A DNA stretch of 64,000 bases from Candidatus Doudnabacteria bacterium (GTDB taxonomy: Bacteria; Patescibacteriota; Doudnabacteria; UBA920; 2-01-FULL-46-14): contig JBGQGB010000002.1 in the NCBI GenBank assembly GCA_041497195.1, positions 172,140-236,139 of the forward strand. Reading direction: 5' to 3'. Each line of letters begins with the position of its first letter. The first letter of the stretch is position 1. The translations under genes were made by a program, and so were the position numbers. The notes under the pieces are model-generated. The model was not told where the DNA came from and did not search any database. It saw only the letters and a list, made by a program, of their open reading frames with translations. Below, piece by piece: positions 7,510-53,292 of the stretch.

Positions 7510-8448
7510 ATGAATTTGAAAGAATTGTTTCAGGCAATTCAATTGGGTTATCAAAAAGCTGTGGGTGAAAATTTTACTAATCACCCGCTCGCTATTTTAA
7601 TGCGTGACGCCCCTAACGAAATAATTAAACCATTGTTAGATGACAATGATTTATTTATCAAAGGGTCGGCCGGGATGGGACAATGGACAGAATTGCCGTG
7701 GATAGGAGTTTTTAACAAGAATGAGACCGATGGCGCTAGGGATGGTGTGTACGTTGTTTATCTCTTTTCGGGAGATATGGAACGATTATATCTTTGTCTA
7801 GGACAGGGCATAACAGACCCCATGGAGCAATTCGGAAGAAAAGGAGGTTTGGCAAAGTTAAAAGCCCGAGCAGAACTTGCACGAGCGAATTATAATCTTC
7901 CTGGGTTTGCCACTGATAATAAATTACAACTTTCTGAATCTCAACGTGGGTCAGACTATGAACGAGCTGTAATTTTTTATAAGGAGTATGATCTAAAAAA
8001 CCTTCCCGAATACGAAATTTTAACAAAAGACCTCCTTGAATTGATAAAGCTATATAATGATTATTTGCTTACAGAGAACGTCGCAACAGTTGAAACAGAC
8101 TTTAGTGAGGTTGTGGGTGAGGTTGAGGAGGGAAAGAGATTATTGCGACAACACTACGTAAGGGAACGGAATCGCAGTATAATAAAAGCAGCAAAAGAAA
8201 AAGCTCTCAAAGAGAAGGGAGGCTTGAATTGCGAAGTTTGCGGTTTTTCCTTTCTGATACATTATGGGGAAAGGGGTCGAAATTTTATAGAAGGGCACCA
8301 TAAAAAACCTGTATCTGAATTACAGGCCGGGGAGAAAACAAGTGTTAATGACATTGTTTTAATTTGCTCAAATTGCCATAGCATTATTCATGCTAAGTGG
8401 CCATATTTACCTTTTGAGGAGCTGCAGAAAATTTACCGCTCATCTTAA
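7510..8448 (+). CDS. MrcB-like N-terminal domain (DUF3578) fused to HNH endonuclease; candidate modification-dependent (type IV) restriction enzyme
   Basis: FIKGSAGMGQWTELPWIGVF...GVYVVYLFSGDMERLYLCLGQG matches the DUF3578 signature. A C-terminal HNH is present (CEVCGF...EGHHKKP...CSNCH). The gene is markedly AT-rich relative to its flanks. Confidence 0.75.
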   Translation: MNLKELFQAIQLGYQKAVGENFTNHPLAILMRDAPNEIIKPLLDDNDLFIKGSAGMGQWTELPWIGVFNKNETDGARDGVYVVYLFSGDMERLYLCLGQGITDPMEQFGRKGGLAKLKARAELARANYNLPGFATDNKLQLSESQRGSDYERAVIFYKEYDLKNLPEYEILTKDLLELIKLYNDYLLTENVATVETDFSEVVGEVEEGKRLLRQHYVRERNRSIIKAAKEKALKEKGGLNCEVCGFSFLIHYGERGRNFIEGHHKKPVSELQAGEKTSVNDIVLICSNCHSIIHAKWPYLPFEELQKIYRSS

Positions 8449-22263: not shown

Positions 22264-23562
22264 CTATTGAACCTTAAAAATAAAAATTTCCCTTGAAACA
22301 AACTGATCCTTGCGGTCATAGATTATGCTTTTTCTCTGGGTCAGGCGCAAAAAATCGTACTTTTCAATCAAAACTTCCGGCAGCGGATCAACAATATCGT
22401 ATCCCAATTTGCTGAGCTTGTCAACGATTTCCAGGAAACGATACCCGGAAGTAGTGCGGTAGGCAGGCAAGGCAATCACGACTCTTTTGCCCGAACTGAG
22501 AATTTTGGCAAAAGCTTTGAAAGCGCCCAGGTACAAAGTTTGCAGATTTTTGAAATTTTGTTTTATTTCATTTTCGTTCGGCATTTGCGCATAGGCTGGC
22601 CCTAGCGTTCCTTCTGTGACGATGGCCTCAAATTTGAGTTTCGGCAGATTAGTTTGCAGCTCTTTGACATCGCTTAAGAACAATTCATAGCGCCCGGTCG
22701 GTAATTTGTAGCGGTTTTTAACCCACTGTAGATTTTTTTCTCCATCATCCACAGCTTTCTGGGAAATATCCGAGCCGATTCCCTTGTATCCCATGAGCAT
22801 GGCTTCCTGAAGTACTGTTCCCGACCCGACAAAGGGATCAAGTACAGCTCGTTTCAAGTCTCCGACCATTTCTACTGGCAGTTGCGCCAGATTGAGCATA
22901 ATTTGCGCCACTTTCGGCGGTAACATGCCAACCTGGTTATCGCGTGCGGGGCGTTGATAATCACGCCGGCCATAATCCTCGAAATCCTGCACAGACAGGG
23001 TCTTCGCCAGATAAATCCGTTCGGCTCCGACCAGGAAATCAATCTCCGCACCCTTGGTCAGCAAATGCTCGCCCGTGACAACGACCGAAGGCAGGGCAAT
23101 AGCTTCTTCCTGTGGCAAAACAGCGCGCACAGACCAGCCGGCTGTTGTGAGCAGATCTTTGATCCCAAGGCCCAGGCGTTTCGGCTCTCCGCGCAAAGGA
23201 AGCTCCCTAGCCATCGGGTAAATAGATACGCCGATCTGAATTTTTCCGGTAGCATTACCCAGAAATTTCTCCTTCAGAAGTGGTACATCGAAATAATCCT
23301 TGAAAACCCAGCTGGGCCCGTCCATTTTTTTTCTTCCCAGCGAATCCAAAACTTCCATTATCTTGATGGTTCCGCCCAGCCTTTTCTGAAGTTTTTCCAC
23401 CGGCAACACTTCTTCCGTTTCAATAACTAAAACCTCGCGATACAAATCAACGAGGCGAAAAGAAAGACCCATGTTTTCGAACACCCCAAACAATTCTGCC
23501 AAAGAAAGCGTGAACACCCGCCCTAAATTGAAAGCGTATTTGACTTTCATTGATTTAATCAA
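22264..23562 (-). CDS. THUMP-domain RNA (guanine-N2)-methyltransferase-like (RlmL/Trm14 family, UPF0020)
   Basis: RPARDNQVGMLPPKVAQIMLNLA substrate-binding region. SAM motif LDPFVGSGTVLQEA. The N-terminal half fits a THUMP-like domain. Confidence 0.7.
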   Translation of the reverse strand: MIKSMKVKYAFNLGRVFTLSLAELFGVFENMGLSFRLVDLYREVLVIETEEVLPVEKLQKRLGGTIKIMEVLDSLGRKKMDGPSWVFKDYFDVPLLKEKFLGNATGKIQIGVSIYPMARELPLRGEPKRLGLGIKDLLTTAGWSVRAVLPQEEAIALPSVVVTGEHLLTKGAEIDFLVGAERIYLAKTLSVQDFEDYGRRDYQRPARDNQVGMLPPKVAQIMLNLAQLPVEMVGDLKRAVLDPFVGSGTVLQEAMLMGYKGIGSDISQKAVDDGEKNLQWVKNRYKLPTGRYELFLSDVKELQTNLPKLKFEAIVTEGTLGPAYAQMPNENEIKQNFKNLQTLYLGAFKAFAKILSSGKRVVIALPAYRTTSGYRFLEIVDKLSKLGYDIVDPLPEVLIEKYDFLRLTQRKSIIYDRKDQFVSREIFIFKVQ

Positions 23563-25428: not shown

Positions 25429-28020
25429 ATGGCTTTTTTAGGAAAAATATTCGGGTTTGAAGACCCGGCGAAGAGTGTCCGCTCGGAGATTGCTCGCATC
25501 AACGAACTGGAAAAGGAATACGAAAATCTCTCTCGCGAGGATCTGACCGCCAAGACGACAAAATGGCGCGAGGAAATCGCTGCCCTGCCGGCCGAAAAGA
25601 TCAAGGACTTTTTGACAGCCATTTTGCCGGAAGCTTTTGCGGTAGTCCGGGAAGCAGCCAAACGCACCCTGGGGCAGCGGCATTACGACGTGCAGTTGGT
25701 TGGCGGGATCATGCTCCATCAGGGAAAAGTCGCGGAAATGAAAACTGGCGAGGGCAAAACCTTGGCCGCCACTTTGCCGGTCTACCTCAACGCTCTTGCT
25801 GGCAAAGGTGTGCACGTAGTCACTGTCAACGACTACCTGGCTCGCCGAGATTCTTCGTGGATGGGACAAATTTACAATTACCTCGGGCTTTCGGCGGCTG
25901 CAATTCAGCATGAGCAGTCTTTCATTTATTCGGAAAAAGTGGAACCACCGCGAGAACAAGAAGGGGGCACGACCGGGCCGCCCGTCGTTCAAATTGACGT
26001 GAAAAACATGGTCCCGACCTCGCGTAGCCAAGCTTACACTGCTGACATTCTGTACGGAACAAACAACGAGTTCGGGTTTGATTATTTGCGCGACAACATG
26101 GCGCCCAGCCTGGAGCAGATGGTGCAGCGCGATTTATACTATGCCATTGTCGACGAAGTCGACTCGATTCTCATCGATGAAGCTCGGACCCCGCTGATTA
26201 TTTCCGCGCCTGACGTGGAGAGCACGCACCTTTATAGTGAATTTGCAAATTTCGCTCTTACTCTGACGCCGGAGGATTATGTTCTTGAGGAAAAACACCG
26301 ACAAGTGACCTATACCGAGGCCGGATACGAAAAATTGGAAAAAAAATACGGCCCGGAAATCTACAGCGACGTGAAGCTTCGTCATCACGCTGATTCGGCT
26401 CTGAGAGCCCTGACTTTGTTCAAAAAAGACCGGGATTATGTCGTCCGGGAAGGGGAAATAATAATAGTCGATGAATTCACCGGACGGCTCATGATCGGCC
26501 GGCGTTATTCGGAAGGATTGCATCAAGCCATCGAGGCCGAAGAAGGCGTACAGGTAAAACAGGAGTCGAGAACGCTCGCTACAATCACTTTTCAAAATTA
26601 CTTTCGCTTGTACAAAAAATTGGCCGGCATGACTGGCACCGCGGCCACGGAAGCAGAGGAGTTCCACAAAATTTATAATCTGGACGTTGTCGAGATACCT
26701 AGCAACAAGCCGACAATCAGAGAGGATCTGCCTGATAGCGTTTACAAAACCGAGGCTGGGAAATATCAGGCCATCGTGCGCGAAGTAAAAAAAAGATACG
26801 ATGCCGGCCAGCCAACCTTGATCGGCACCATATCTATAGAAAAAAATGAAATGCTGGCCGGACTTTTGAAAAAAGCCGGGGTCAGGCATGAAATCCTCAA
26901 CGCGAAAAACCATGAACGAGAAGCCCATATCATTGCCCAGGCTGGCAAATTCAAGGCCGCCACCCTGGCCACAAACATCGCTGGCCGCGGGGTCGATATC
27001 CTTTTGGGTGGCAACCCTCCGGATGGCGAAGAAGCGGACAAAGTCAGGCAGCTAGGGGGTCTGCACGTCATAGGCACTGAGAGGCATGAAGCCAGACGGA
27101 TAGACAATCAGCTCCGGGGGCGTTCCGGCCGTCAGGGCGACCCCGGGTCCTCGCAGTTTTTCATTTCTCTGGAAGACGATTTGATGAGACTCTTCGGTGG
27201 AGACCGGGTGAAAAAAATGATGGACACTTTGGGCGTGCCCGAAGACCAGCCGATTGAAGCCAAAATAGTCAGCAGGACCATTGAGAGCGCGCAGCATAAA
27301 ATCGAGGGCATGAACTTTGATTTGCGTAAGCATGTTTTGGAGTTCGACGACGTCCTCAACAAACAAAGAGAAGTCATTTACGGAAGAAGACGCAAGATAC
27401 TAGGCGGCGAGATTGATCTGCGCGAGCAAACTCTGCAAAAAATCCGAGAACAAATTGAAAATATATTGAGCCTGGAGCAAGACCCAAAGATCTTGTATGA
27501 GCAAGTTAACGCGATTTTTCCGATACAAAAAGACGAGGAAAAAACGTTTTCCAGTCAGGAAATGTGGATAAATCAGTTGACAAAACTTGCACTGGAGCGT
27601 TACGAGGAAAAAGAAAGCAAGGTCTCTGCTGGCATAATGAGGCAGATTGAAAAGATTATCACTCTCCAATCCATTGACAATTTGTGGATGCAGCACCTGG
27701 ACACCATGGACCACTTGAGACAGTCTGTCAGTTTGCGCGGTTATGCTCAAAAAGATCCGCTGGTGGAATACAAACAGGACGGCTTGCGCTTGTTTGAACG
27801 TTTACTTTCGGAAATAGATAAAAGCATTGTTTACACTATTTACCGAGTCGACGTGCAGCCCAGGGAAACGCCTCATATCCATTCAAGTTCCGCAGTCCGC
27901 GCCGCTGATGGGACTAGGGCAGGTAGAAACGACCCCTGCCCTTGCGGGAGCGGCAAAAAGTGGAAAAAATGCGGGATGCTGAATACCCCAGAACACCAAA
28001 AGTTCATGGCTCAGCGCTAA
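25429..28020 (+). CDS. secA: preprotein translocase ATPase SecA
   Basis: Walker A MKTGEGKTLAA, DEAD-like DEVDSILIDEA, and the C-terminal zinc finger CPCGSGKKWKKC. Confidence 0.95.
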   Translation: MAFLGKIFGFEDPAKSVRSEIARINELEKEYENLSREDLTAKTTKWREEIAALPAEKIKDFLTAILPEAFAVVREAAKRTLGQRHYDVQLVGGIMLHQGKVAEMKTGEGKTLAATLPVYLNALAGKGVHVVTVNDYLARRDSSWMGQIYNYLGLSAAAIQHEQSFIYSEKVEPPREQEGGTTGPPVVQIDVKNMVPTSRSQAYTADILYGTNNEFGFDYLRDNMAPSLEQMVQRDLYYAIVDEVDSILIDEARTPLIISAPDVESTHLYSEFANFALTLTPEDYVLEEKHRQVTYTEAGYEKLEKKYGPEIYSDVKLRHHADSALRALTLFKKDRDYVVREGEIIIVDEFTGRLMIGRRYSEGLHQAIEAEEGVQVKQESRTLATITFQNYFRLYKKLAGMTGTAATEAEEFHKIYNLDVVEIPSNKPTIREDLPDSVYKTEAGKYQAIVREVKKRYDAGQPTLIGTISIEKNEMLAGLLKKAGVRHEILNAKNHEREAHIIAQAGKFKAATLATNIAGRGVDILLGGNPPDGEEADKVRQLGGLHVIGTERHEARRIDNQLRGRSGRQGDPGSSQFFISLEDDLMRLFGGDRVKKMMDTLGVPEDQPIEAKIVSRTIESAQHKIEGMNFDLRKHVLEFDDVLNKQREVIYGRRRKILGGEIDLREQTLQKIREQIENILSLEQDPKILYEQVNAIFPIQKDEEKTFSSQEMWINQLTKLALERYEEKESKVSAGIMRQIEKIITLQSIDNLWMQHLDTMDHLRQSVSLRGYAQKDPLVEYKQDGLRLFERLLSEIDKSIVYTIYRVDVQPRETPHIHSSSAVRAADGTRAGRNDPCPCGSGKKWKKCGMLNTPEHQKFMAQR

Positions 28021-28062
28021 TCCAACTTGATTTTTTCTTTTTAGATGGCATAATATTAGAAG

Positions 28063-29367
28063 ATGAGCAAAACTAAACTATACATCAGATTTGTCCTTAT
28101 CTTACTGCTGGCCGCTGTCAGCGGTTTTCTTGTAACTGACAAACTAGCACTCCTAAAAATACACAAAAAAATCCCTTTCCGACTGGGGCTTGATCTGCAA
28201 GGCGGCACCAACCTGGTGTATGAAGGAAGCCTCACTGACATTGCCACAGCTGATCGCGGTGATGCCATGAATTCAGTCCGCAACGTCATTGAAAGAAGGG
28301 TCAACGCTTTCGGCGTGACCGAACCGGTCGTCCAAATAGCGGGGGAAAACAGGCTGATAGTGGAACTACCGGGTGTCAAAGACATCGATGCGGCAGTCAA
28401 ACAAATCGGCTTGACGCCTTTCTTGGAATTTCGCGAAGAAGATCCAAGTTACAAACAAACAGATCCTAATATAATCGAGCTCGGTAAAAAATACCGCCAA
28501 ACCGGGCTTTCCGGAAAAAACCTGAAACGTTCAAGCATCGTTTTTGACCCTACCACCAATGCTCCGCAAATCAGCCTGCAATTTGACAGCCAGGGTCAAA
28601 AACTTTTTGCAGATATCACTGGGCGAAATGTAGGCAAGACAGTCGCTATCTTTCTCGATGGCCAGCTAATTTCAGCGCCAGTGGTGCAGCAAGCGATCAG
28701 CTCCGGCCAGGCGGTGATCCAAGGACGATTCACAGTGGACGAAGCCAAACAACTGGCACAAAGACTCAACGCCGGAGCACTACCAGTTCCCATCAAACTA
28801 TTGCAGCAGGAAAACATCGGCCCCTCATTGGGCCAAATCTCGGTCAAGAAGAGTATTTTAGCCGGAATGATCGGTTTTCTGGCTGTGGTCGTGTTTATGA
28901 TTTTTTATTACCGCGTCCCGGGCATTTTGGCAACTTTTGCCCTGATCATTTACGTTTTATTTTCTTTGGCGATTTTTAAACTTCTGTCAATAACCTTGAC
29001 TTTGCCCGGCATCGCGGGCTTTATTTTATCCGTCGGCATGGCGGTGGACGCGAACATTTTAATTTTTGAACGCACCAAGGAGGAAATCCGCCTTGAGTTG
29101 CCTTTGGACAAAGCTTTGGAAGAGGGTTTCAAAAGGGCATGGTCTTCCATCCGCGACTCCAACGTTTCTTCCCTGATCACTGTCCTCATTTTGGGCTATT
29201 TTGGGACGAGCCTAATCAGAGGTTTCGCCATTACCTTGGGCATCGGTATTTTGGTCTCAATGTTTACGGCTATAACCGTGACGCGAACGTTCTTGCGGCT
29301 GCTGACGAGCTATAATTTTGCAAAAAACCCGAAACTTTACGGAGTGAGGAGCTTAAAAAATGTTTAG
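28063..29367 (+). CDS. secD: protein translocase subunit SecD
   Basis: LGLDLQGGTNLVYE and a C-terminal 6-TM domain. Confidence 0.9.
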   Translation: MSKTKLYIRFVLILLLAAVSGFLVTDKLALLKIHKKIPFRLGLDLQGGTNLVYEGSLTDIATADRGDAMNSVRNVIERRVNAFGVTEPVVQIAGENRLIVELPGVKDIDAAVKQIGLTPFLEFREEDPSYKQTDPNIIELGKKYRQTGLSGKNLKRSSIVFDPTTNAPQISLQFDSQGQKLFADITGRNVGKTVAIFLDGQLISAPVVQQAISSGQAVIQGRFTVDEAKQLAQRLNAGALPVPIKLLQQENIGPSLGQISVKKSILAGMIGFLAVVVFMIFYYRVPGILATFALIIYVLFSLAIFKLLSITLTLPGIAGFILSVGMAVDANILIFERTKEEIRLELPLDKALEEGFKRAWSSIRDSNVSSLITVLILGYFGTSLIRGFAITLGIGILVSMFTAITVTRTFLRLLTSYNFAKNPKLYGVRSLKNV

Positions 29368-30256
29368 CGTCACGAAGTATTACAAAGTCTGGTTTGGTTT
29401 TTCCGGCTTGTTGCTTTTGGCCTCCGCCGTGCTTCTGATAGCCTGGCATCTCCAATTTGGCATTGACTTCAAAGGCGGTTTTCGCGCTGAAGTTGAATTC
29501 GCCAAGACTGTTGACGCTTCATCCGTCCAAACAGAGCTTGCTAAAAACGGATTTAGTCAAGTTTTGGTTCAACCAGTCACTGACAAAAAAATAGTCATCC
29601 GGACCGAGGCCATCGACGATACCCAAACTGCCAAATTCAAGCAGGTCCTGGAGCACAAATTTGGCAGCTACCAGGAAGACAGCCTGACTAGGGTAGGGCC
29701 GACCTTAGGAAGCGAACTCTTGCGCAAAGCATACTGGCAAATCGGACTGGTTGTCTTGGGGATTGTGCTATACGTGAGCTATGCTTTCCGCAAAATCGGC
29801 AGGTCGATGAAAAAAGGAAGAATCCCCGCGTGGCATTTGGGTGTGGCGACAATAGCCGCATTAGCTCACGATTTGCTAATTCCCATCGGCGTGTTCGTAG
29901 TTTTAGGGCATTTCAAAGGTGTTGAGGTAGACAGCCTTTTTATCACCGCACTGCTCACAATCATGGGTTTTTCCGTCCACGATACGATCGTCGTTTTTGA
30001 CAGGATCCGTGAAAACTTGCAAAAGTATCCATACAAGTCTTTGCAGACTATTATTGATTATTCAGTGAGTTCCACCATGGCTCGTTCCATAAATACTTCC
30101 TCGACTTTAATTTTTGTTCTGATCGCCATGTTGCTTTTTGGTGGTCAGACTGTATTCTATTTCATCCTAGCCCTTCTAGTCGGAGTATTTTTCGGCACTT
30201 ATTCTTCGATTTTTATTGCGAGTCCGATACTTTTCCTCTGGCATAGAGAAACATGA
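29360..30256 (+). CDS. secF: protein translocase subunit SecF
   Basis: GIDFKGG and a 6-TM SecF domain. It overlaps secD by 8 nt. Confidence 0.9.
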   Translation: MFSVTKYYKVWFGFSGLLLLASAVLLIAWHLQFGIDFKGGFRAEVEFAKTVDASSVQTELAKNGFSQVLVQPVTDKKIVIRTEAIDDTQTAKFKQVLEHKFGSYQEDSLTRVGPTLGSELLRKAYWQIGLVVLGIVLYVSYAFRKIGRSMKKGRIPAWHLGVATIAALAHDLLIPIGVFVVLGHFKGVEVDSLFITALLTIMGFSVHDTIVVFDRIRENLQKYPYKSLQTIIDYSVSSTMARSINTSSTLIFVLIAMLLFGGQTVFYFILALLVGVFFGTYSSIFIASPILFLWHRET

Positions 30257-30257
30257 T

Positions 30258-30286
30258 TTGACAAGCATAGCAAATTATGCTATACT
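30258..30286 (+). promoter_or_regulatory. near-consensus sigma70 promoter (TTGACA-17-TATACT) with an embedded inverted repeat AGCATA-N6-TATGCT
   Basis: Motifs read directly. The palindrome sits in the spacer, about 22 nt upstream of the 30308 ATG. Confidence 0.5.
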
Positions 30287-30307
30287 GGTGGCGATTAAAA
30301 AAACGCC

Positions 30308-31429
30308 ATGGCAGAGGAGCAGGACAGCAAAAATCCAAAACCTCACGGCATTCTGGACACCGTGAGCTATACGCGACAAAATGAGACTTTGCGTAACTTC
30401 AATCCGCAAAGTTTTGTTAGTACTTTTTTGGATGGGCTCAAGCTTCGGGAGAGACAAATACTCTCCAGCCGATACGGCCTCGATGACGGCCAGCCACAAA
30501 CATTGGAAGAAATCGGGAAAAGACTGGGTTTGACTCGCGAGCGGGTGAGACAAATCGAAAAAGAAACGACCAAAAAGCTGCAACAAAAAAATATACCCGT
30601 CAGCCTCGAACAGACTGTAGATCTGATATTCCAAATAATCGAGGACAGCGGCAACATAGCGATCGAGGAAAAAATTCTGGACACGCTCCTGGCAGCGAAC
30701 AAGACCGAGGTGGGGCGCAAGGCAATCTTATTTGTTCTAAATTTAGCGCCGCGCTTTAACCGTTTCAAAGAAACAAACAGCTACAGCGCCGGCTGGTCCG
30801 TGACCGGTTTTGATGTCAATCTACTGGAACAAATAATTTCAGCTGCGCAGGAAAGGCTGGAAACAGCGCAAAAACCTTTGCGCGGCGACATTCTGTTTGA
30901 CCAAATTCGAAAACAGATTAATTCCGCAGAAATCCAAAATCTCACCAATGAAGCTTTGGACAGCTACACAAGCATGTCAAAGCAGATTGACAAAAACGTC
31001 TTTCAAGAATGGGGCTTAGCGAAATGGACCGATATTCATCCGAAGGACGTCGGAGATAAGGTATATTTGGTGTTGTCTCACCACGGCAAACCCGAACATT
31101 ACTCAAAAATTACCGAACTCATAAACAAACAAAGTTTTGATAAACGCACGGCCCACAAAGAAACCGTGCACAACGAACTCATAAAAGACGACCGGTTCGT
31201 ACTGGTAGGAAGGGGGATTTACGCGCTCACGAAATGGGGATACAAAAAAGGCGTAGTGGCCGACATAATCAAGGAAACTTTACAAAAATCTCCGGAGCCG
31301 CTGACTAGAGACCAATTGATTGAGCAGGTTCTCAAACAGCGTCTTGTGAAAAGAAATACTATTATAGTCGGGCTTTCCAATCGCAAACTCTTTCGTAAAA
31401 CTTCGGACAACAAATACACAAATGTTTAG
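30308..31429 (+). CDS. DNA-binding protein: sigma-70 region-4-like HTH (N-terminal third) plus C-terminal HARE-HTH-like winged helix
   Basis: LSSRYGLDDGQPQTLEEIGKRLGLTRERVRQIEKETTKKL matches sigma70 region 4. The C-terminal DDRFVLVGRGIYALTKWGY matches the HARE-HTH terminal motif (compare RpoE delta DGRF...WGL..W). Confidence 0.55.
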   Translation: MAEEQDSKNPKPHGILDTVSYTRQNETLRNFNPQSFVSTFLDGLKLRERQILSSRYGLDDGQPQTLEEIGKRLGLTRERVRQIEKETTKKLQQKNIPVSLEQTVDLIFQIIEDSGNIAIEEKILDTLLAANKTEVGRKAILFVLNLAPRFNRFKETNSYSAGWSVTGFDVNLLEQIISAAQERLETAQKPLRGDILFDQIRKQINSAEIQNLTNEALDSYTSMSKQIDKNVFQEWGLAKWTDIHPKDVGDKVYLVLSHHGKPEHYSKITELINKQSFDKRTAHKETVHNELIKDDRFVLVGRGIYALTKWGYKKGVVADIIKETLQKSPEPLTRDQLIEQVLKQRLVKRNTIIVGLSNRKLFRKTSDNKYTNV

Positions 31430-32744
31430 TGACGTATTTCAGCTATTCAGCTTAATTTGGTTTTTAATGGTCAAAGGCGGGTGGGTCGTTTTGGCAGCCG
31501 GGCTCGTGTATATGTTTGGTTGGCTTTATATGGATCGGATCCAAATGGCTTGGTATCACAAACTCGAATGGGTATTTTTGAAAATCACGGTGCCCAAAGA
31601 AAACGATAAAAGTCCGCTGGCGTTCGAGCAGATTTTTGGCCACGTTCACGCTATGCACGCAACTTTTACCCCAGCCGAAAAATATTTGGAGGGTCAATTT
31701 CAAATCTGGTTCACTTGGGAAATCGTCAGCATCGGCGGTACTATCAGCAACTACGTCAAAATTCTGAAAAAATACCGAGATACTCTCGAGTCGGCCATTT
31801 ACTCACAATTTCCTCAGGCTGAAATCACCGAAACCGCTGACTACTTTGACAGTCTCCCAAAATACAACACGGACACATCCGAGTACGACATTTTCGCTTT
31901 TAATTTCAAATACAAACACCCCAATCCGTACCCGATCCGCAGCTATCTGGAATTCGAACACAGTAGTGCCGACACTTTTGTCGACCCGGTCGACGGCCTC
32001 TGGGAAGAGCTCACGAAAATCAGTCCCTATGAAATGGTCGTGTTTCAATATATTTTCCGGCCCATAGCGGACGATGACTGGAAAGAAACCGGGCGCAAAC
32101 TCGTGAGCAAGCTCAAAGGGGAGCGGGAGGCTTTGGAGGAAAAACCGAATTATTTAGCTCAGGCAGCTGGCTGGCTTATAAACCCCTTCATCGACGCTTT
32201 GATAATCAGGGCCAGCCCCGGGGAGCACCGACCAGCACCACGGAAGGAAGAGTTGCCCCCCAGCCTGATGTTGCATTTGTCTGAGGGAGAAAAAGAAATA
32301 ATCAGCGCGATTGAGCGCAAACTTGCCAAGCTGACTTACCAAACCAAACTTCACGTTCTGTATATAGCCCCCAGGGAAAAGTATAACCCCAGCCCGGTTT
32401 ATACGGCTATAATTGGCGCGATAAAAAGCGTTGGTTCAGCGGACACCAATTCGCTCAAGCCAGACACGCACAAATGGACCAAGGTCCACTACGGAGCATT
32501 TAAAGAGTGGGAAAAACCGATTACCACAACCAGGCTGAACTATCGCAAACGGCGCTTCATGAGCCGGATCAGGCGACGTTTTTATTTCCACGGACCAGCG
32601 CCGATGATTCTCAGTACCGAGGAAATCGCCACGATTTTGCACTTCCCCAGAACCGAGGTCACAGTCCCGCAGATTGAAAAAGTCGAGGTTATGAAAGTTC
32701 AGCCACCACCGGAGTTACCTGTTATTTATGATGAAACTATATGA
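31422..32744 (+). CDS. membrane protein (2 N-terminal TM helices + ~370-aa cytoplasmic domain), hypothetical; putative partner of downstream coupling ATPase
   Basis: N-terminal hydrophobic helices (LFSLIWFLMV, WVVLAAGLVYMFGWLY). An 8-nt overlap with the upstream gene and a 4-nt overlap with the downstream gene. Confidence 0.5.
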   Translation: MFSDVFQLFSLIWFLMVKGGWVVLAAGLVYMFGWLYMDRIQMAWYHKLEWVFLKITVPKENDKSPLAFEQIFGHVHAMHATFTPAEKYLEGQFQIWFTWEIVSIGGTISNYVKILKKYRDTLESAIYSQFPQAEITETADYFDSLPKYNTDTSEYDIFAFNFKYKHPNPYPIRSYLEFEHSSADTFVDPVDGLWEELTKISPYEMVVFQYIFRPIADDDWKETGRKLVSKLKGEREALEEKPNYLAQAAGWLINPFIDALIIRASPGEHRPAPRKEELPPSLMLHLSEGEKEIISAIERKLAKLTYQTKLHVLYIAPREKYNPSPVYTAIIGAIKSVGSADTNSLKPDTHKWTKVHYGAFKEWEKPITTTRLNYRKRRFMSRIRRRFYFHGPAPMILSTEEIATILHFPRTEVTVPQIEKVEVMKVQPPPELPVIYDETI

Positions 32745-34354
32745 ATAACAATCGAGAACACATCAATCTTTTCGCCCGAACCAATTTTCGTAACCGCGAG
32801 GTACCTTTTGGCATCAAGGAAGATGACCGGCGCCGGCACATGTACATCATCGGCAAGACAGGCATGGGAAAGACTACCATGATTGAAAACATGATAGTCC
32901 AGGATATCGCTGCCGGTCACGGCGTGGCCTTTGTCGACCCCCATGGCGAATCAGTCGAAAAGATTCTTCAGTATATCCCTTCCTCGCGCGTCAACGATGT
33001 CGTGTATTTCAATCCCGCGGATATCGACTATCCGATAGCCTTCAATCCGCTCGAGTCAGTCGATCCGAAATACAAACACTTGGTTGCGTCCGGACTGATG
33101 GGCGTATTCACTAAAATTTGGGAAAATGTCTGGAGTGCCCGGATGGAATACATTTTGAACAACACAATACTTGCTCTGCTGGACACTCCGGGCAACACTA
33201 TGCTCGGTATTGCGCGCATGCTGGTGGACAAAAAATTTCGCAAACGAATAACCGACAACACCCGGGATCCAGTGGTCAAATCCTTTTGGATAGATGAGTT
33301 CGCTAATTATAACGATCGGTTCCGCAACGAAGCCATTGCGCCTATCCAGAACAAAGTCGGACAATTTTTATCCTCCGCCATTATCAGAAACATTGTTGGC
33401 CAGACAAAAAGCACTGTTGATTTGCGGGATATCATGGACAACAGGAAGATTTTACTTCTGAATTTGGCCAAAGGCCGCATCGGCGAGGACAATTCGAAAC
33501 TTCTAGGAGCGATGTTTATCACCAAGCTGCAGCTGGCAGCGATGAGTAGGGTAGATGTTCCGGAAGAAGAGCGGGCAGATTTTTATTTGTACGTTGACGA
33601 ATTTCAAAACTTTGCGACGCAGTCGTTCGCGACTATCCTGTCAGAGGCTAGAAAATACCGACTGAATTTGATAATCGCCCACCAATACATTGAGCAGCTT
33701 GACGAGGAGGTCGCCGCTGCAGTATTTGGTAACGTCGGTACAATCATTTTATTCAGGATTGGGGCAACGGACGCTGAAGCCCTGGAGCCTGAATTTTTGC
33801 CGACTTTTGAACAGGATGACCTGGTCAACCTGAGCAAATATCACATTTATCTAAAACTGATGATAAACGGTGTCTCTTCGCAGCCATTTTCGGCTGTCAC
33901 TCTACAGCCGCTTGCAGAAAAAACGGGAAATCTAGATAAGGTCATCAAAGTTTCCCGCGAAAGATACAGCCGTCCGCGCGAACAAATCGAGGAAAAGATT
34001 ACGCGCTGGATGGGACAGGAATACCATAGCGAAGCGGCCCAGCAGGACCTCACGGAAGAAGAGGCAGAGGAGGAAAGGGGAGGAGTGATATTCAGTGGAG
34101 CTACCGCGGCGCCTGCAGCTACGAAGCCTGTTGTAGTAGAAAAACCAGATGCTCCTGCCCCGGCTAACCCCGTACTGAATTCTAAACCACAAGAAAATCC
34201 GGTTTGGCAGAAAGTTGCCAGCGACCAAGAGAAAAAGACCCAAGAGGCAATAAAAAAAGTCTCCAAGACGCTGCGTTTTGATTTTGCTAACAAGAAAAAT
34301 CAACTCCAACCGCCGCGCCCACCAGTTGAGAGTGACAAACCACGACAAACTTGA
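32741..34354 (+). CDS. VirD4/TrwB/TraD-like type IV coupling-protein ATPase (soluble; lacks own TM anchor) with acidic/low-complexity C-terminal tail
   Basis: RRRHMYIIGKTGMGKTT...VAFVDPHGE...VYFNPADIDYPIAFNPLE parallels the TrwB RHLLVNGATGTGKS...VDPNGD...ILNPYD motifs. Walker B FYLYVDEFQNF is present. The C-terminal EEEAEEERG... tail is acidic. Confidence 0.65.
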   Translation: MNNNREHINLFARTNFRNREVPFGIKEDDRRRHMYIIGKTGMGKTTMIENMIVQDIAAGHGVAFVDPHGESVEKILQYIPSSRVNDVVYFNPADIDYPIAFNPLESVDPKYKHLVASGLMGVFTKIWENVWSARMEYILNNTILALLDTPGNTMLGIARMLVDKKFRKRITDNTRDPVVKSFWIDEFANYNDRFRNEAIAPIQNKVGQFLSSAIIRNIVGQTKSTVDLRDIMDNRKILLLNLAKGRIGEDNSKLLGAMFITKLQLAAMSRVDVPEEERADFYLYVDEFQNFATQSFATILSEARKYRLNLIIAHQYIEQLDEEVAAAVFGNVGTIILFRIGATDAEALEPEFLPTFEQDDLVNLSKYHIYLKLMINGVSSQPFSAVTLQPLAEKTGNLDKVIKVSRERYSRPREQIEEKITRWMGQEYHSEAAQQDLTEEEAEEERGGVIFSGATAAPAATKPVVVEKPDAPAPANPVLNSKPQENPVWQKVASDQEKKTQEAIKKVSKTLRFDFANKKNQLQPPRPPVESDKPRQT

Positions 34355-34367
34355 TACACTTTAGCTC

Positions 34368-35456
34368 ATGAAAAAGGTCTTGGTCGCCATGAGCGGAGGA
34401 GTTGACTCCTCGGTAGCAGCAGCCCTTCTGAAACAGCAGGGCTATTTTGTTGCAGGCGGTTATATGAAAAATTTTTCCGAAGAGTCATGGTCTGGTGTCA
34501 TCAAAGCAGATTGCCCATGGGAACAGGATGTCGCTGATGCCAAGGCGGTATGCGATAAACTTGGAATCGAATTACGTAGTTTTAATTTTGAAAAAGAATA
34601 CAAAGACAAGGTGGTTGAATATTTTTTCGCTGATTACGCAGCGGGGCGCACACCAAACCCCGACATCATATGCAATAAAGAAATCAAATTCAAGCTTTTT
34701 CTTGATAAAGCTTTAGAATTGGGGTTTGACTATATAGCTACAGGTCACTACGCTCGAATCCAAAAACTTACGAGGTACAACTTTAGTACTTACCAACTTT
34801 GCAAGGGACTGGACGCAAAAAAAGACCAATCCTATTTTCTGTATACCCTCACTCAAGACCAACTTGCTCATTCGATCTTTCCAGTCGGAGAATATGCCAA
34901 AACGCAAGTGCGCCAATTGGCTCGCGACTTTGGATTGCCAAACTCAGAAAAAAAAGACTCCCAAGGAGTTTGTTTCATCGGCCGCATCAATCTGCGCGAA
35001 TTCCTGAAACAAAGGATTCCGGAAAGAGTCGGAGAAATAGTGACGACCGCAGGTCAAGTCATCGGGCAACACCGCGGGGCTGCTTACTTCACAATCGGCC
35101 AGCGAGAAGGATTGGGCGTCGGCGGCGGCACTCCCTACTATGTCTCCCAAAAAAATGTTTTAAAAAATCAGATCGTTGTCGCCCAAGGGCGACAAGATAG
35201 CTCAATGTACAAAACTGAAGTTAGAATCGCCAACCCCCATTGGATTGGCAAGGAACCAAAACTTCCTTTCAGCTGTCGCACTAAAATCCGTTACCAGCAA
35301 CTAGATCAGGAATGTGAGGTCACTAAACAAGGTAGCGAATTGATCGTGAACTTTCGGGAGTCCCAGTTTGCTGTAGCCCCCGGGCAGTCCATAGTATTTT
35401 ACAACGGCAATCTCGTCGTAGGTGGCGCCATCATCGAAAATTCGTTTCGCTACTGA
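34368..35456 (+). CDS. mnmA: tRNA-specific 2-thiouridylase MnmA
   Basis: PP-loop VLVAMSGGVDSSVAA and a C-terminal MnmA domain. Confidence 0.9.
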   Translation: MKKVLVAMSGGVDSSVAAALLKQQGYFVAGGYMKNFSEESWSGVIKADCPWEQDVADAKAVCDKLGIELRSFNFEKEYKDKVVEYFFADYAAGRTPNPDIICNKEIKFKLFLDKALELGFDYIATGHYARIQKLTRYNFSTYQLCKGLDAKKDQSYFLYTLTQDQLAHSIFPVGEYAKTQVRQLARDFGLPNSEKKDSQGVCFIGRINLREFLKQRIPERVGEIVTTAGQVIGQHRGAAYFTIGQREGLGVGGGTPYYVSQKNVLKNQIVVAQGRQDSSMYKTEVRIANPHWIGKEPKLPFSCRTKIRYQQLDQECEVTKQGSELIVNFRESQFAVAPGQSIVFYNGNLVVGGAIIENSFRY

Positions 35457-40330: not shown

Positions 40331-41863
40331 CTAGCCTGAATAGCCGGTAAAAAAATCAGTTTTGATATTATGACTGGCGACTCCCATTTTTTGCAGCATC
40401 TTCTTGTAAGACACGACCATCGGGTCTGGCCCGGAAACATAAAACAGACAGTCTTGCCAATTCGGGACCTCGCTCTTAATCATGTCACTATCGATACGCC
40501 CGGTTTTGCCTTTCCAAGCGCTGCCGGCACTTTGAGAGTCGGTTGTTGTGCGCACGATTTTTAGACCGATTTTTTCGGAAGCTTCTTGAAACAAATCGCC
40601 AAACACAAATTCTTCCGGTGAGCGGCTCGCATACAGAAGGGTAATGGAAACTTTCTGGCCCCTGTCGAGAATATCCCGAATAATGCTGCGAAACGGCGTG
40701 ACTCCGATTCCGCCAGCGATAAAGACTAAATGCCGGCTAGTTTTGTTTCTTACGACAAACTCACCCTCTTTATTGCTGGCTATAATTTTCTGGCCAGGCT
40801 TCAAATCTTTCAAGGCTTTTTTGAAACTACTTGAGACCTCGACAAATTTCGTAACCAGTAAAATACCTTTCTCACTCGGAGCAGATGCAATCGTAAAATA
40901 GCGCCTGATGCCTCGGCTGTCCGGATGTGAGTGGGGGAGCGTCCATTCCAAAAACTGCCCGGCTGTAAAAACAAAAGGCCGCTCCGGCTCAAACCAAAAG
41001 GCGACGGTGTCCTTTGACAACGACATTGTTTCACGCAAACGCAAAACCAGACGAATGTCGCGTGAAAAAATACGTGACCCAACATTACCGACAAGCAAAG
41101 CCAGTTCGAGACTATAGGGGACCTGCGTATACCTTTGCACTGCTATCAAAACCAGAGCAACAAAGACTCCGAAATAAATCCTAGGCAATCTATTCTGCGG
41201 GCCCGTGAGAGGCTCTATCAGCATGACAAAGGTAAAAAACAAAAGTGGAGAATATAAAACTAAGCTCTTCAGGAGCGGCCAAAACGTACCGATCCCAGCG
41301 GGGGAAAATGCTGACCCGACGAATAGAGCCGCGAAATATGTAAGAAGAAAACTGAGTGCCAAATGCCAGCGTCGGATCTTTCCCACAACTAGCACACCAC
41401 CGAGAATAATAAAAGGGACTAGAAATTGGTTCCCGACCCACCAACTAGCGCCTGTTTTTAGCAGAAGTGCTGAAACCACGACGGCAAAAGCAGTAGGATT
41501 TAAAATATGCCTTTTATTTATGACCAGAAGATATTTGGAAGCCATGGCCACTACAGCGATGGCAGCCAAAACCCAAACGCTGGCGAAGGGAGCCAACGGA
41601 CCAACTATCAAAGCCAAAATCAATCCGGTGATAAGTGCTGATTCAGGATTCGGCGTGGTCCGAAAAACGTAGGCGAACAGCTTGTTACTAGCATAACTCA
41701 CCAAAACCAAAAAGCCTCCGGATAACAAAATGTCCGTAGCCTTGAAAGCCAGGACTCCCGCAAAGCTGAGAAGAGAAGCAATTGCTACTAAACCAATCAA
41801 GTAGTACAGCATTAACCTGTACATGGTCACTCGATTGAGAATGTCCTGGAAAAACTTACTCAA
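40331..41863 (-). CDS. fused membrane oxidoreductase: N-terminal ~330-aa polytopic domain (possibly NqrB/RnfD-like) + C-terminal FNR-like FAD/NAD(P)H-binding module
   Basis: The C-terminus has the RRYFTIAS (RxYS/T) FAD motif and the GGIGVTPF NAD(P) motif. The N-terminus has about 8 TM helices, with HILNPTAF and KTGASWW motifs. Only two His lie in the membrane part, which argues against a bis-heme FRD domain. Confidence 0.55.
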   Translation of the reverse strand: MSKFFQDILNRVTMYRLMLYYLIGLVAIASLLSFAGVLAFKATDILLSGGFLVLVSYASNKLFAYVFRTTPNPESALITGLILALIVGPLAPFASVWVLAAIAVVAMASKYLLVINKRHILNPTAFAVVVSALLLKTGASWWVGNQFLVPFIILGGVLVVGKIRRWHLALSFLLTYFAALFVGSAFSPAGIGTFWPLLKSLVLYSPLLFFTFVMLIEPLTGPQNRLPRIYFGVFVALVLIAVQRYTQVPYSLELALLVGNVGSRIFSRDIRLVLRLRETMSLSKDTVAFWFEPERPFVFTAGQFLEWTLPHSHPDSRGIRRYFTIASAPSEKGILLVTKFVEVSSSFKKALKDLKPGQKIIASNKEGEFVVRNKTSRHLVFIAGGIGVTPFRSIIRDILDRGQKVSITLLYASRSPEEFVFGDLFQEASEKIGLKIVRTTTDSQSAGSAWKGKTGRIDSDMIKSEVPNWQDCLFYVSGPDPMVVSYKKMLQKMGVASHNIKTDFFTGYSG

Positions 41864-51431: not shown

Positions 51432-52466
51432 TTAAGCAAACAACTTGGCGAAGCTCCTCTTGGCTCTTTTTTTCCAATGCCCAGTCTTGTAAGCGTGGGC
51501 TGCGAGCACAGGAAGAGCGAGGGTCGCTTCAGCATAGACCATTTGCTCGTAGACAGTACTGACCTTGCCCCAAGAACTAGCTTCTTTGAGAGTTGAGGAT
51601 GAGCAGGCGCCGTCTCTGACGTCTGCGACAGTGATCTGAATCGCGTATTTATGGACCGACGCATTAAAACCCAAAACCTCGGCCGCCACCACGGTGTCCT
51701 GGGCAAAATTCTTCGGCACTCCCCCGCCGATCATGAGGAGCCCGCTGTCTTTGCTGGCAATTTTAATTTTCGTTAACTCCAAAAAATCCTTCACGGAATC
51801 AATGCTTACATGCTCATCGGGATTCTTCCACTGATGTAGCACCAGCCCGAACCCTGCTGAAGAGTCTGAAAAAGCCGGACAGAAAATTGGGACGTTGTGC
51901 TCATACGCCGTCTGCACCAATGAATTCTTCTTCTTGGAATGTTTGACCAGGTACTTTCCCATCTGGGCTATGAATTCACGGGAGGAATAAGCGCGCGGCT
52001 CCATCTCATCAGCCAGCTTGCAAATCGTCTTGTCGCATTCCTGGAGCTGGTCCTCGTCTATAAACGTATCGTATATCCGGTCAATGTACATGCTCCGCAA
52101 CAGCCCGTCGTCAACATTCGGCGTGCCTCGATAATGCCGAAATCCCAAAGCTTCAAAAAAATCCATGTCAACAATGGAGGCTCCGGTCGCCACAATTACG
52201 TCTATCATATTGTTTTTGACCATGTCCACATAGATCTGCATGCAGCCGGCAGCGCTGGTGGATCCGGCCAGAGTGAGCCAGGCTGACGAATTTTTGTCAG
52301 CGAGCATCCGGTTGTATATTTCCGCTCCTCGGGCCAAATCCCGGGAAGAAAAAGACATCTTCCCATAGGCTTTCACTAATCGCTCCACATCCAGGGTCTT
52401 GATGTCTATATGTTCTATGGGTTGACTCAATAGTCTCCGCTTTTCGCGCTTCAAACTCGATTTCAT
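51432..52466 (-). CDS. deoxyhypusine synthase-like protein (DHS/homospermidine synthase family)
   Basis: LTLAGSTSAAGCMQIYVDMVKNNMIDVIVATGASIVDMD... matches the DHS fold. 344 aa. Confidence 0.75.
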   Translation of the reverse strand: MKSSLKREKRRLLSQPIEHIDIKTLDVERLVKAYGKMSFSSRDLARGAEIYNRMLADKNSSAWLTLAGSTSAAGCMQIYVDMVKNNMIDVIVATGASIVDMDFFEALGFRHYRGTPNVDDGLLRSMYIDRIYDTFIDEDQLQECDKTICKLADEMEPRAYSSREFIAQMGKYLVKHSKKKNSLVQTAYEHNVPIFCPAFSDSSAGFGLVLHQWKNPDEHVSIDSVKDFLELTKIKIASKDSGLLMIGGGVPKNFAQDTVVAAEVLGFNASVHKYAIQITVADVRDGACSSSTLKEASSWGKVSTVYEQMVYAEATLALPVLAAHAYKTGHWKKRAKRSFAKLFA

Positions 52467-52470
52467 ATAT

Positions 52471-53292
52471 TTATTTATTCAAAAATTTAAAACTTATTAA
52501 CTTAAAAACCAGCTTCGCGACCAAAAAATCATACCCCGGCATACCTCTTATGGGCGCCAGTTCCACAAAATCAGCGCCGACGAGGTTTTTTCGCTTAGCC
52601 ACCGTACTCATGAGTTCGAGAGCCTGCGCGTACGACAGTCCGCCTGGCTCCGGCGTCCCGGTCGCGGGCATGATAGAAAGATCGAGCCCGTCCACGTCAA
52701 AAGTCAAATAGACGTCCTCACTCAGTCGGCTCATAACTTTATCCAAATCATACCGATCTCCCCAAAAAATATTGTCCGGGTTGAGATGCCACTGCTCTTC
52801 TTTGGCGGTATTGCGAATGCCGACCTGAACGATTTTCTCTATCCCCTGCTCCTGGACTCGCCGCATGGCGCAAGCGTGCGAATTTTTCGAACCTTCCCAT
52901 TCGTCCCTCATATCCGTGTGCGCATCAATCTGCAAAACCGAAAGGTTTTTGTACTTTTCGATGTAAGGCTTGATCAGCGCTGGGGTTATCGAATGTTCCC
53001 CGCCGAGAGTAATCAAAAACCTGTCAAAATATCTTCTGGCCGTTTCGGCAATCGCCTCTCTGCTGCCGCTGACCTCTGGCAGAGTCGCGATCTTTACCAG
53101 GTTTTGCAGTTCATCCCCCAATTCCGGCTCAAAAAGTTCAACTTGCTGCGAAGCAGCGAGTATAGCGCGGGGTCCGTGCTTTGTGCCTTGTCCGTAAGAC
53201 GTGGTTTCCTCAAAAGGGGCAGGTAAAATCAAGACTTGGCCTTCCTCAGGGTCTATTTCCGGTATTCCCAGAAAATTAAAAATCGCGTCCAT
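52471..53292 (-). CDS. speB: agmatinase (arginase/ureohydrolase family)
   Basis: Mn-binding motifs GGEHSIT, LQIDAHTDMRDE and SFDVDGLDLSIMPATGTPEPGG. Confidence 0.85.
   Translation of the reverse strand: MDAIFNFLGIPEIDPEEGQVLILPAPFEETTSYGQGTKHGPRAILAASQQVELFEPELGDELQNLVKIATLPEVSGSREAIAETARRYFDRFLITLGGEHSITPALIKPYIEKYKNLSVLQIDAHTDMRDEWEGSKNSHACAMRRVQEQGIEKIVQVGIRNTAKEEQWHLNPDNIFWGDRYDLDKVMSRLSEDVYLTFDVDGLDLSIMPATGTPEPGGLSYAQALELMSTVAKRKNLVGADFVELAPIRGMPGYDFLVAKLVFKLISFKFLNK

Follow-up and report, generated by a model that had tools for sequence, protein, structure and literature searches.

At positions 30258 to 34354 of a 64,000-nucleotide stretch of a Candidatus Doudnabacteria genome (contig JBGQGB010000002.1; 'the window' below means this whole 64-kb stretch), three overlapping genes encode a DNA-binding protein with a sigma-70 region 4 and a HARE-HTH winged helix (gene 1), a membrane-anchored protein (gene 2) and an ATPase of the type IV coupling protein (T4CP) type (gene 3). 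Judging from homologues in other lineages, in which they are fused, genes 2 and 3 each encode one half of a single protein. Orphan T4CP homologues of Patescibacteria have been counted in surveys; what is new here is an orphan T4CP with an N-terminal half predicted to be VirB4-like (DUF8128), fused or split, that travels with a sigma region 4/HARE-HTH protein.

The three open reading frames (ORFs), all on the + strand, overlap by 8 nt (genes 1 and 2) and 4 nt (genes 2 and 3), as a preliminary description of this DNA had reported from the ORF listing, and the gene models match exactly between independent JGI and NCBI calls on the same contig. The features are as follows.

30308–31429, + strand: gene 1, 373-aa sigma-region-4 and HARE-HTH DNA-binding protein (Pfam)
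30428–30583, + strand: sigma-70 region 4 of gene 1, aa 41–92, recognition helix TRERVRQIE (Sigma70_r4, E 3e-16)
31067–31237, + strand: HARE-HTH winged helix of gene 1, aa 254–310 (Pfam PF05066, E 4e-8, above the gathering score)
31422–32744, + strand: gene 2, 440-aa DUF8128 protein, N-terminal membrane anchor and a cytoplasmic domain predicted to resemble the VirB4 N-terminal domain
31434–31532, + strand: hydrophobic anchor of gene 2, aa 5–37, a single long segment broken by K-G-G (hydropathy)
31563–32651, + strand: cytoplasmic α/β domain of gene 2, predicted VirB4 N-terminal-domain fold, ending in (N/S)TEE(L/I)AxxxHFP
32700–32720, + strand: PPxxLP motif in the disordered C-terminal tail of gene 2, corresponding to the linker position in fusions
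32741–34354, + strand: gene 3, 537 aa, a soluble P-loop ATPase of the T4CP (VirD4/TrwB) type whose tail is acidic/Pro-rich and of low complexity
32852–32878, + strand: Walker A of gene 3, GKTGMGKTT, aa 38–46, invariant in the family and aligned to the TrwB Walker A
33584–33604, + strand: Walker B of gene 3, YLYVDEF, aa 282–288, invariant and aligned to TrwB WLFIDEL
34031–34351, + strand: variable low-complexity tail of gene 3, acidic then Pro/Ala-rich, with an NPVW motif (translation)
30258–30286, + strand: sigma-70-type promoter TTGACA-17-TATACT with a TG extended −10 (tatGCTATACT), 2 nt past the secF stop
30265–30282, no strand assigned: inverted repeat AGCATA-N6-TATGCT in the spacer of the promoter, unlikely to be an operator

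An anchor and a motor encoded by separate genes

The case for a single protein in two parts is made by at least 13 homologues of 792–980 aa, most of them with both DUF8128 and TrwB_AAD_bind, that fuse the two products colinearly. They were sought with a chimaeric query made of gene 2 and the first 130 residues of gene 3; in BLASTP alignments gene 2 covers residues ~10–425 of the fusions and gene 3 follows from ~425. These fusions bear out the earlier proposal that the anchor of the ATPase is supplied in trans by the preceding gene. A published protein of Candidatus Southlakia epibionticum ML1, SEML1_0293, has the size and layout of the same fusion, with 921 aa and TrwB_AAD_bind at 402–719 (PMC10633639).

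Gene 3 is, on its sequence, a VirD4/TrwB-type motor without a membrane segment of its own, and the preliminary assignment to that family stands. Pfam places TrwB_AAD_bind at aa 27–340 (PF10412, E 5e-13, 49.3 bits where the cut-off is 20.5), with DUF87, TraG-D_C and T4SS-DNA_transf also matching, all above the gathering score; the match to FtsK_SpoIIIE is negligible (E 0.02), and the partial TraD and VirD4-like matches in NCBIfam are all well under their curated cut-offs. A profile of 20 gene-3 family members was compared by hhalign with TrwB and TrwK of R388 (NC_028464). It aligns to TrwB over 259 columns, from Walker A through Walker B (probability 94.8%, E 5e-8), whereas TrwK, the VirB4 of that plasmid, is matched at the P-loop only (probability 1.5%). 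Nor does gene 3 resemble the C-terminal ATPase domain of the VirB4 type, TIGR00929 giving 17.6 bits against a cut-off of 643. The closest solved structures by sequence are DotL and TrwB. Hydropathy finds no N-terminal hydrophobic segment in gene 3, and a transmembrane domain in the same polypeptide occurs only in the fused homologues.

The last ~105 residues of gene 3 are acidic and then Pro/Ala-rich, which agrees with the acidic tail noted earlier. Among close homologues the P, W and V of an NPxW..V motif are at least 90% conserved; across classes the tails are hypervariable. A correlation between this motif and adjacency to gene 1 was considered and dropped, because the motif, present in close relatives only, carries no information on the point. 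Many orthologue tails end in (L/I)xPG(Q/E)x(I/V)xF (loci L003, L006, L009, L010, L023, L031, L045, L049, L053 and others), a terminal motif that gene 3 of the window lacks, and some carry an RPxYCxxC zinc-ribbon-like motif instead (L015, L020, L030, L059, L062). One of these loci also holds a second, more divergent T4CP-like paralogue, 41% identical to gene 3, 4–5 kb upstream of the module (L023, 3–1034).

On plasmids, relatives of gene 3 are at most 39% identical and form a continuum with DUF87/TraD-like proteins from plasmids of monoderms and archaea, some of which are typed as conjugative. Two solitary gene-3-like ATPases were seen on plasmids that are non-mobilisable and without genes of a type IV secretion system (T4SS): one, with 39% identity, on a Sulfitobacter plasmid (NZ_CP081110, 99994–101181; L087), and one of 708 aa, with 29% identity, on a Bradyrhizobium plasmid (NZ_CP064708; L088). 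Transposases flank one of the two, and the other has CHAT/TPR genes next to it. The DUF8128 profile does not match the unrelated ~320-aa N-terminal extension of the Bradyrhizobium ATPase.

The second protein had been called an orphan; it belongs to the Pfam family DUF8128 (PF26449), for which a precomputed match exists on a database protein 100% identical to it and on most gene-2 homologues. This family comprises 3,623 representatives of 50%-identity clusters at E ≤ 0.001, and gene-2 homologues were found at no fewer than 552 species loci, whose named sources are nearly all Patescibacteria, with a few other labels of metagenome-assembled genomes. In a 17-sequence alignment E400, E401, A403, H407 and P409 are invariant, along with further acidic/aromatic positions. 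P428 and L432 of the PPxxLP tail are invariant as well, P429 and P433 nearly so, and a GGW in the anchor region is conserved across the family.

Two N-terminal transmembrane helices had been expected in this protein. Hydropathy gives one continuous hydrophobic stretch at aa 5–37 and not two clear helices; several homologues likewise have just one such stretch, and the AlphaFold model (predicted local distance difference test (pLDDT) 79, predicted template-modelling score (pTM) 0.75) contains one long helix at aa 2–47; residues 413–440 have a pLDDT below 50. The earlier view of gene 2 as the membrane part of the system is right as regards the anchor, but the protein is not merely a transmembrane domain, having besides a ~360-aa domain predicted to resemble the VirB4 N-terminal domain. 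In a Foldseek search with the model the top 13 matches are all TrwK chains (E 5e-6 to 8e-4), among them a 457-residue chain too short to contain the whole C-terminal ATPase, and no P-loop protein other than TrwK occurs among the top 60. Because gene 2 has no P-loop and the Walker A of TrwK lies near residue 450, the part matched should be the VirB4 N-terminal domain, and we infer that the cytoplasmic domain of gene 2 has this fold. Given such a fold, the gene pair looks like a VirB4-style N-terminal half followed by a T4CP-style motor. At the level of sequence, the gene-2 family gave no match among all PDB sequences, gene 2 none among all plasmids and none in NCBIfam, and no CagE_TrbE_VirB Pfam match falls on gene 2.

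Conservation, promoter and gene 1 across Patescibacteria

To place the operon among its relatives we took a census of 80 loci, one per species, with flanks of up to 7 kb and tblastn-based counts; denominators are loci with room for the gene in question (74 for gene 3, 70 for gene 1), and four loci with fused forms of genes 2 and 3 were examined besides. Gene 3 lies directly 3′ of gene 2 at 64 of 74 loci and gene 1 directly 5′ at 45 of 70, the commonest order being secD-secF-gene1-gene2-gene3. The possibility raised earlier that the three genes never co-occur in related genomes is thus set aside. The fused forms lie in housekeeping contexts, and one of them (L084) abuts a gene 1 homologue at a 0-nt gap.

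Within the window the operon stands between secDF and mnmA, as first described: 5′ are secA, secD and secF, and 3′ are mnmA and then an H+-pyrophosphatase on the opposite strand. A block of secA-secD-secF-(gene1)-gene2-gene3-(mnmA), at 25429–35456 in the window, is syntenic across very divergent classes. secF is directly upstream on the same strand at 48 of 65 loci, and mnmA is directly adjacent at 7 of 58. In many lineages secF is followed by a terminator-like hairpin and this in turn by a separate strong promoter, so the linkage to secDF is one of synteny and not of co-transcription. At the other end there is no convincing terminator between gene 3 and mnmA, which begins 14 nt after it, and mnmA may be co-transcribed with the operon.

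Sequence identity across classes, taken as the median best-segment identity to the window proteins, is 67.7% for the gene 3 core, 56.6% for SecD, 50% for SecA, 46% for MnmA, 42.7% for SecF, 37% for gene 1 and 32% for gene 2. In the same loci, then, the ATPase core exceeds both SecA and SecD in conservation, a pattern indicative of strong constraint, and the module, which is vertically inherited, looks Patescibacteria-wide.

The near-consensus promoter reported earlier is there: it matches 11 of 12 consensus positions, has a TG extended −10 and is the best sigma-70 match within 27.9–35.7 kb (7.8 kb). A loose pattern, TTGAC-N16-19-TAnnnT, lies upstream of gene 1 at 38 of 45 loci, and many orthologous promoters, across classes, read TTGACa-N13-14-TRTGcTATAcT (−35 and extended −10). 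This uniformity, seen in the 150 nt upstream of gene 1 at loci L001–L080, may reflect a general strong-promoter consensus of Patescibacteria. The inverted repeat in the spacer had been proposed as an operator for the gene 1 product, a role that we reject: the left arm is absent from orthologous gene-1 promoters, the right arm, TATGCT, is part of their conserved extended −10, and ~9.5% of shuffles of the 51-nt intergenic region hold an equivalent repeat. Over the whole window the heptamer CTTTGAC, which contains the −35 core TTGAC, occurs 24 times on the two strands against 10.7 expected, a count that no shuffle reached; a frameshift site of the prfB kind (CTTTGAC) was looked for ahead of the release-factor ORF at 17246 and is absent on that strand.

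Gene 1 combines a sigma-70 region 4 with a HARE-HTH domain, in agreement with the preliminary description, which had also judged, correctly, that this is not a standard sigma factor. Neither Pfam nor NCBIfam finds sigma region 2 in it, region 4 alone matching, and the NCBIfam sigma models match solely at their C-terminal end, far under cut-off. Over 56 aa the region is close to HrdB/SigA, with the helix TRERVRQIE against TRERIRQIE. Region 4.2 of sigma factors is the basis for predicting −35 and β-flap contacts; the recognition helix of gene 1 predicts −35-type DNA contacts and possibly β-flap contacts. RNA polymerase delta (RpoE) is a poor fit, for the HARE-HTH of gene 1 is internal, an acidic tail is missing and the match to the delta N-terminal model (TIGR04567) is weak, at 27.1 bits against a cut-off of 42. 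In ECOD the Southlakia homologue SEML1_0294 is parsed into one tri-helical and three winged-helix domains (PMC10633639); by analogy, gene 1 may carry three winged helices. At 22264–23562 (− strand) of the window, between the gene for ribosomal protein L27 and secA, a 432-aa ORF has a weak N6/N4 DNA methylase match; this might be relevant should modified DNA be what the gene 1 HARE-HTH recognises.

We scanned 20 large ORFs of the window outside the operon for T4SS genes. Neither VirB4, VirB6 nor a relaxase is among them, all being housekeeping or cell-envelope genes, in line with what had been said of the 64 kb. Elsewhere in the window, an ORF at 7510–8448 (+ strand) joins an MrcB-like N-terminal domain to an HNH nuclease and looks like a modification-dependent (type IV) restriction enzyme. 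At 51432–53292 (− strand) a deoxyhypusine synthase homologue (E 3e-94) stands beside an arginase/agmatinase-family gene, a polyamine-related pair that is unusual in bacteria. In a 510-aa membrane protein at 40331–41863 (− strand), oxidoreductase domains that bind FAD and NAD accompany an NQR2/RnfD-like region, a combination that stands out in a lineage thought to have no respiratory chains.

A proposed coupling motor and the alternatives to it

On the strength of what is known of the FtsK/HerA/VirB4/VirD4 superfamily, we propose that the gene 2 and gene 3 halves would come together on the cytoplasmic side of the membrane and form an ATP-driven motor, an oligomer and probably a hexamer. Because each subunit adds only one hydrophobic segment, the assembly is unlikely to be a channel by itself and would most likely dock on another translocon. 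We tentatively favour, as an inferred function, a membrane-tethered coupling/translocation motor that docks in this way, the leading candidate for the translocon being a T4SS.

The most plausible partner would be the T4SS of the mating-pair-formation type FATA (MPF-FATA) that is found elsewhere in most Patescibacteria chromosomes with no coupling protein encoded in its cluster. It is the best candidate because it lacks a T4CP of its own and because the N-domain of DUF8128 is predicted to mimic VirB4, a likeness that would let the motor occupy VirB4-type contacts in the T4SS. The motor would select the substrate and energise its transfer, with DNA as the leading candidate. Gene 1 would act as a DNA-binding accessory or regulator, as TrwA or TraM does for a coupling protein; in R388 the order trwA-trwB likewise sets a DNA-binding accessory before a T4CP, as gene 1 precedes the motor. 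Gene 1 would also have to have a separate essential role.

Published surveys and genetics bear on this proposal. VirB4 was found in 2,417 of 3,035 Patescibacteria genomes (80%), and 5,713 T4CP homologues were found in 2,918 genomes (96%), only 148 of them near virB4; exaptation was suggested for these homologues (PMC12102498, 2025). In Candidatus Southlakia epibionticum ML1 the T4SS cluster SEML1_0006–0019 is essential and has no recognisable coupling protein or relaxase (PMC10633639). Transposon sequencing (Tn-seq) of that organism scored SEML1_0294, the apparent orthologue of gene 1, as essential at all three time points, and SEML1_0293, the apparent orthologue of the motor in fused form, as non-essential, its normalised reads falling ~4-fold, from 5817 to 2940 and 1372 (PMC10633639, Table S1). 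Both were flagged as core, Patescibacteria-enriched families (PMC10633639), and we assigned their orthology from the domain tables of the supplement and not from a sequence alignment. The Southlakia genome also has a canonical essential FtsK, so we reject the module as an FtsK replacement, and a second TraD/TraG-like ATPase, SEML1_0142, which is essential (PMC10633639) and is preceded by a small essential hypothetical gene (SEML1_0141/0142).

Several observations weigh against the docked coupling motor. No T4SS gene lies at any of the 80 species loci or the four fused-form loci, and neither relaxase nor VirB genes, whose presence near the triplet in relatives was in question, were seen at the species loci. 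The gene-2 family profile gives no signal against TrwK in hhalign, so the VirB4 likeness is structural only, and the AlphaFold model of gene 3, built on a low-diversity alignment of 20 sequences, is of low confidence (pLDDT 39.5), with helices at aa 109–235 that may correspond to the all-α domain which T4CPs carry between Walker A and Walker B. T4CP homologues occur in more genomes than VirB4. The Southlakia T4SS is essential, whereas the apparent motor orthologue is dispensable, and the essential SEML1_0142 could be the real T4SS partner. As for gene 1, ~36% of loci (25 of 70) do not have it beside gene 2, which tells against a dedicated accessory, and its being essential when the motor is dispensable suggests that its main role may be unrelated.

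These last points lead to an alternative that we consider somewhat doubtful yet serious: gene 1 stands outside the machine, as an essential Patescibacteria-specific transcription or RNA polymerase-associated factor, with its sigma region 4 and delta-like HARE-HTH, in an ancient syntenic block, and the unit is genes 2 and 3. This would be compatible with either view of the motor. Besides the difference in essentiality and the 25 loci without adjacency, gene 1 is also not beside three of the four fused forms, gaps between genes 1 and 2 reach 465 nt (approximate) in other lineages, the secA-secD-secF-...-mnmA block is syntenic, with gene order kept beyond function, and region 4 closely resembles that of primary sigma factors. 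Against this, the adjacency survives both split and fused states and deep divergence (gene 2 at ~32% identity), and the 8-nt overlap here and the 0-nt gap at L084 suggest translational coupling.

A different view of the motor, which we regard as unlikely, makes the module a self-standing, Patescibacteria-specific nucleic-acid handling machine that is independent of any T4SS. Gene 1 would mark DNA, for example at −35-like TTGACA sites or at modified DNA read by the HARE-HTH, and the DNA would be handed to a membrane-tethered motor that would be an evolutionary intermediate of VirB4 and VirD4; the roles might be DNA exchange with, or acquisition from, the host, or nucleoid tethering or remodelling, in cells unable to make nucleotides. 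Stated for the motor, and with similarly low probability, this is an autonomous DNA translocase on the model of Streptomyces TraB, FtsK/SpoIIIE or archaeal Ced, serving DNA exchange, release, scavenging or segregation. Guided by the several helix-turn-helix domains of the gene 1 protein, it would move DNA along or through the membrane, alone or with a channel other than a T4SS. The T4SS genes that are never adjacent, the excess of T4CP over VirB4 genomes and the dispensable motor in an organism whose T4SS is essential all fit such a translocase, as do the primary-sigma TRERxRQIE helix kept by its partner gene 1 and the core-genome context and extreme conservation, which suggest a housekeeping-like role. 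A weak NCBIfam match of gene 3 to the DNA-translocating ATPase CedD points the same way but is restricted to the P-loop region; a DNA pore is unlikely to be formed from a single hydrophobic segment in each subunit; and Southlakia keeps its FtsK, while its competence depends on ComEC. A minimal DNA-uptake module, one of the possibilities first raised for this operon, is somewhat disfavoured on two of the same grounds, the single hydrophobic segment per subunit and ComEC as the competence channel in the tractable relative.

Quite improbable, in our judgement, is a protein-handling ATPase that would power the export or extraction of proteins and that works with Sec/SecDF or forms a minimal pair like that of a type VII secretion system, with DUF8128 as EccE and the ATPase as EccC. 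The position of secF directly upstream across classes would suit it, and T4CPs recognise protein substrates in effector-translocating systems, but secF and gene 1 are separate transcription units in many lineages, the synteny also takes in mnmA, which has no obvious link to secretion, the motor is T4CP-type by sequence and not EccC/FtsK-type, and no gene for a candidate substrate, WXG100-like or otherwise, is linked. An anti-phage or conflict system with a HerA/TraD-like ATPase at its core is hardly credible: PADLOC matches gene 3 to mad8 (E 1e-15), HerA and DndH models and gene 1 to MzaA, and related solitary ATPases lie on proteobacterial plasmids beside CHAT/TPR genes or transposases, yet the MzaA match covers sigma region 4 only, the Southlakia genes are flagged as core families (PMC10633639), and a near-universal family that holds a single syntenic core position and is better conserved than SecA is the opposite of a defence island. 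The known systems of this kind (MADS mad8, HerA-type and Mza) were rejected, their PADLOC matches being partial and to single proteins in a core-genome block.

Much of bacterial diversity falls within the Patescibacteria, whose lineage-specific core genes are for the most part unexplained. The module looks near-universal in the phylum, and in the one relative that is amenable to genetics the gene that partners it is essential. No paper in the searchable literature mentions DUF8128/PF26449, describes the operon or joins HARE-HTH with sigma region 4. The earlier label of 'uncharacterised' thus holds for the module as such, but not for its parts, since orphan T4CP homologues (PMC12102498) and Tn-seq data (PMC10633639) have been published. 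The module offers a concrete architecture for a protein family hitherto merely counted in surveys, and hints at a way for a coupling protein to engage VirB4-type sites, or at the way in which VirB4 and VirD4 parted. It also turns the question of exapted Patescibacteria T4CPs into specific experiments in Candidatus Southlakia epibionticum.

Comparison with known systems

Of the known systems, T4CPs (VirD4, TrwB, TraD and DotL; TrwB of R388, PDB 1E9R) share a homologous motor with gene 3 and a flexible acidic C-terminal tail, and the gene of a DNA-binding protein lies directly upstream here, as trwA does before trwB. They differ in that gene 3 has no transmembrane segment, its anchor residing on a separate protein with a predicted VirB4-N-domain-like fold that is absent from canonical T4CPs; and the module is chromosomal, widely distributed in its phylum and vertically inherited, with no relaxase or T4SS nearby.

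In VirB3–VirB4 fusions a membrane segment is followed by the N-domain and then by the P-loop motor. With the fold predicted for gene 2, genes 2 and 3 would share this order, and with it a likeness to VirB4 (TrwK of R388, PDB 7O42/8RTD), but the motor of the module is not VirB4-like by sequence and lies outside T4SS clusters. Patescibacteria carry a separate bona fide VirB4 (PMC12102498).

EccE–EccC of the mycobacterial ESX (type VII) systems likewise pairs a membrane-anchored α/β cytoplasmic protein with an ATPase of the FtsK/HerA superfamily. The match to it is much weaker than that to VirB4, the motor here is T4CP-type, and neither other ESX components nor WXG substrates are encoded in linkage with it.

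Streptomyces TraB and FtsK/SpoIIIE are membrane-tethered hexameric DNA pumps that recognise DNA motifs through winged helices and act without a T4SS. They belong to the same superfamily as gene 3; their DNA-recognition and multi-pass membrane domains share one polypeptide, unlike those of the module.

The apparent orthologues in Saccharibacteria, SEML1_0294 and SEML1_0293, are a 349-aa Sigma70_r4 and HARE-HTH protein and an adjoining TrwB_AAD_bind ATPase (PMC10633639). There the DUF8128-sized half and the motor form one 921-aa protein, whereas here they are two overlapping genes, and the Southlakia neighbourhood holds CRISPR–Cas and topoisomerase I in place of the secDF and mnmA of the window.

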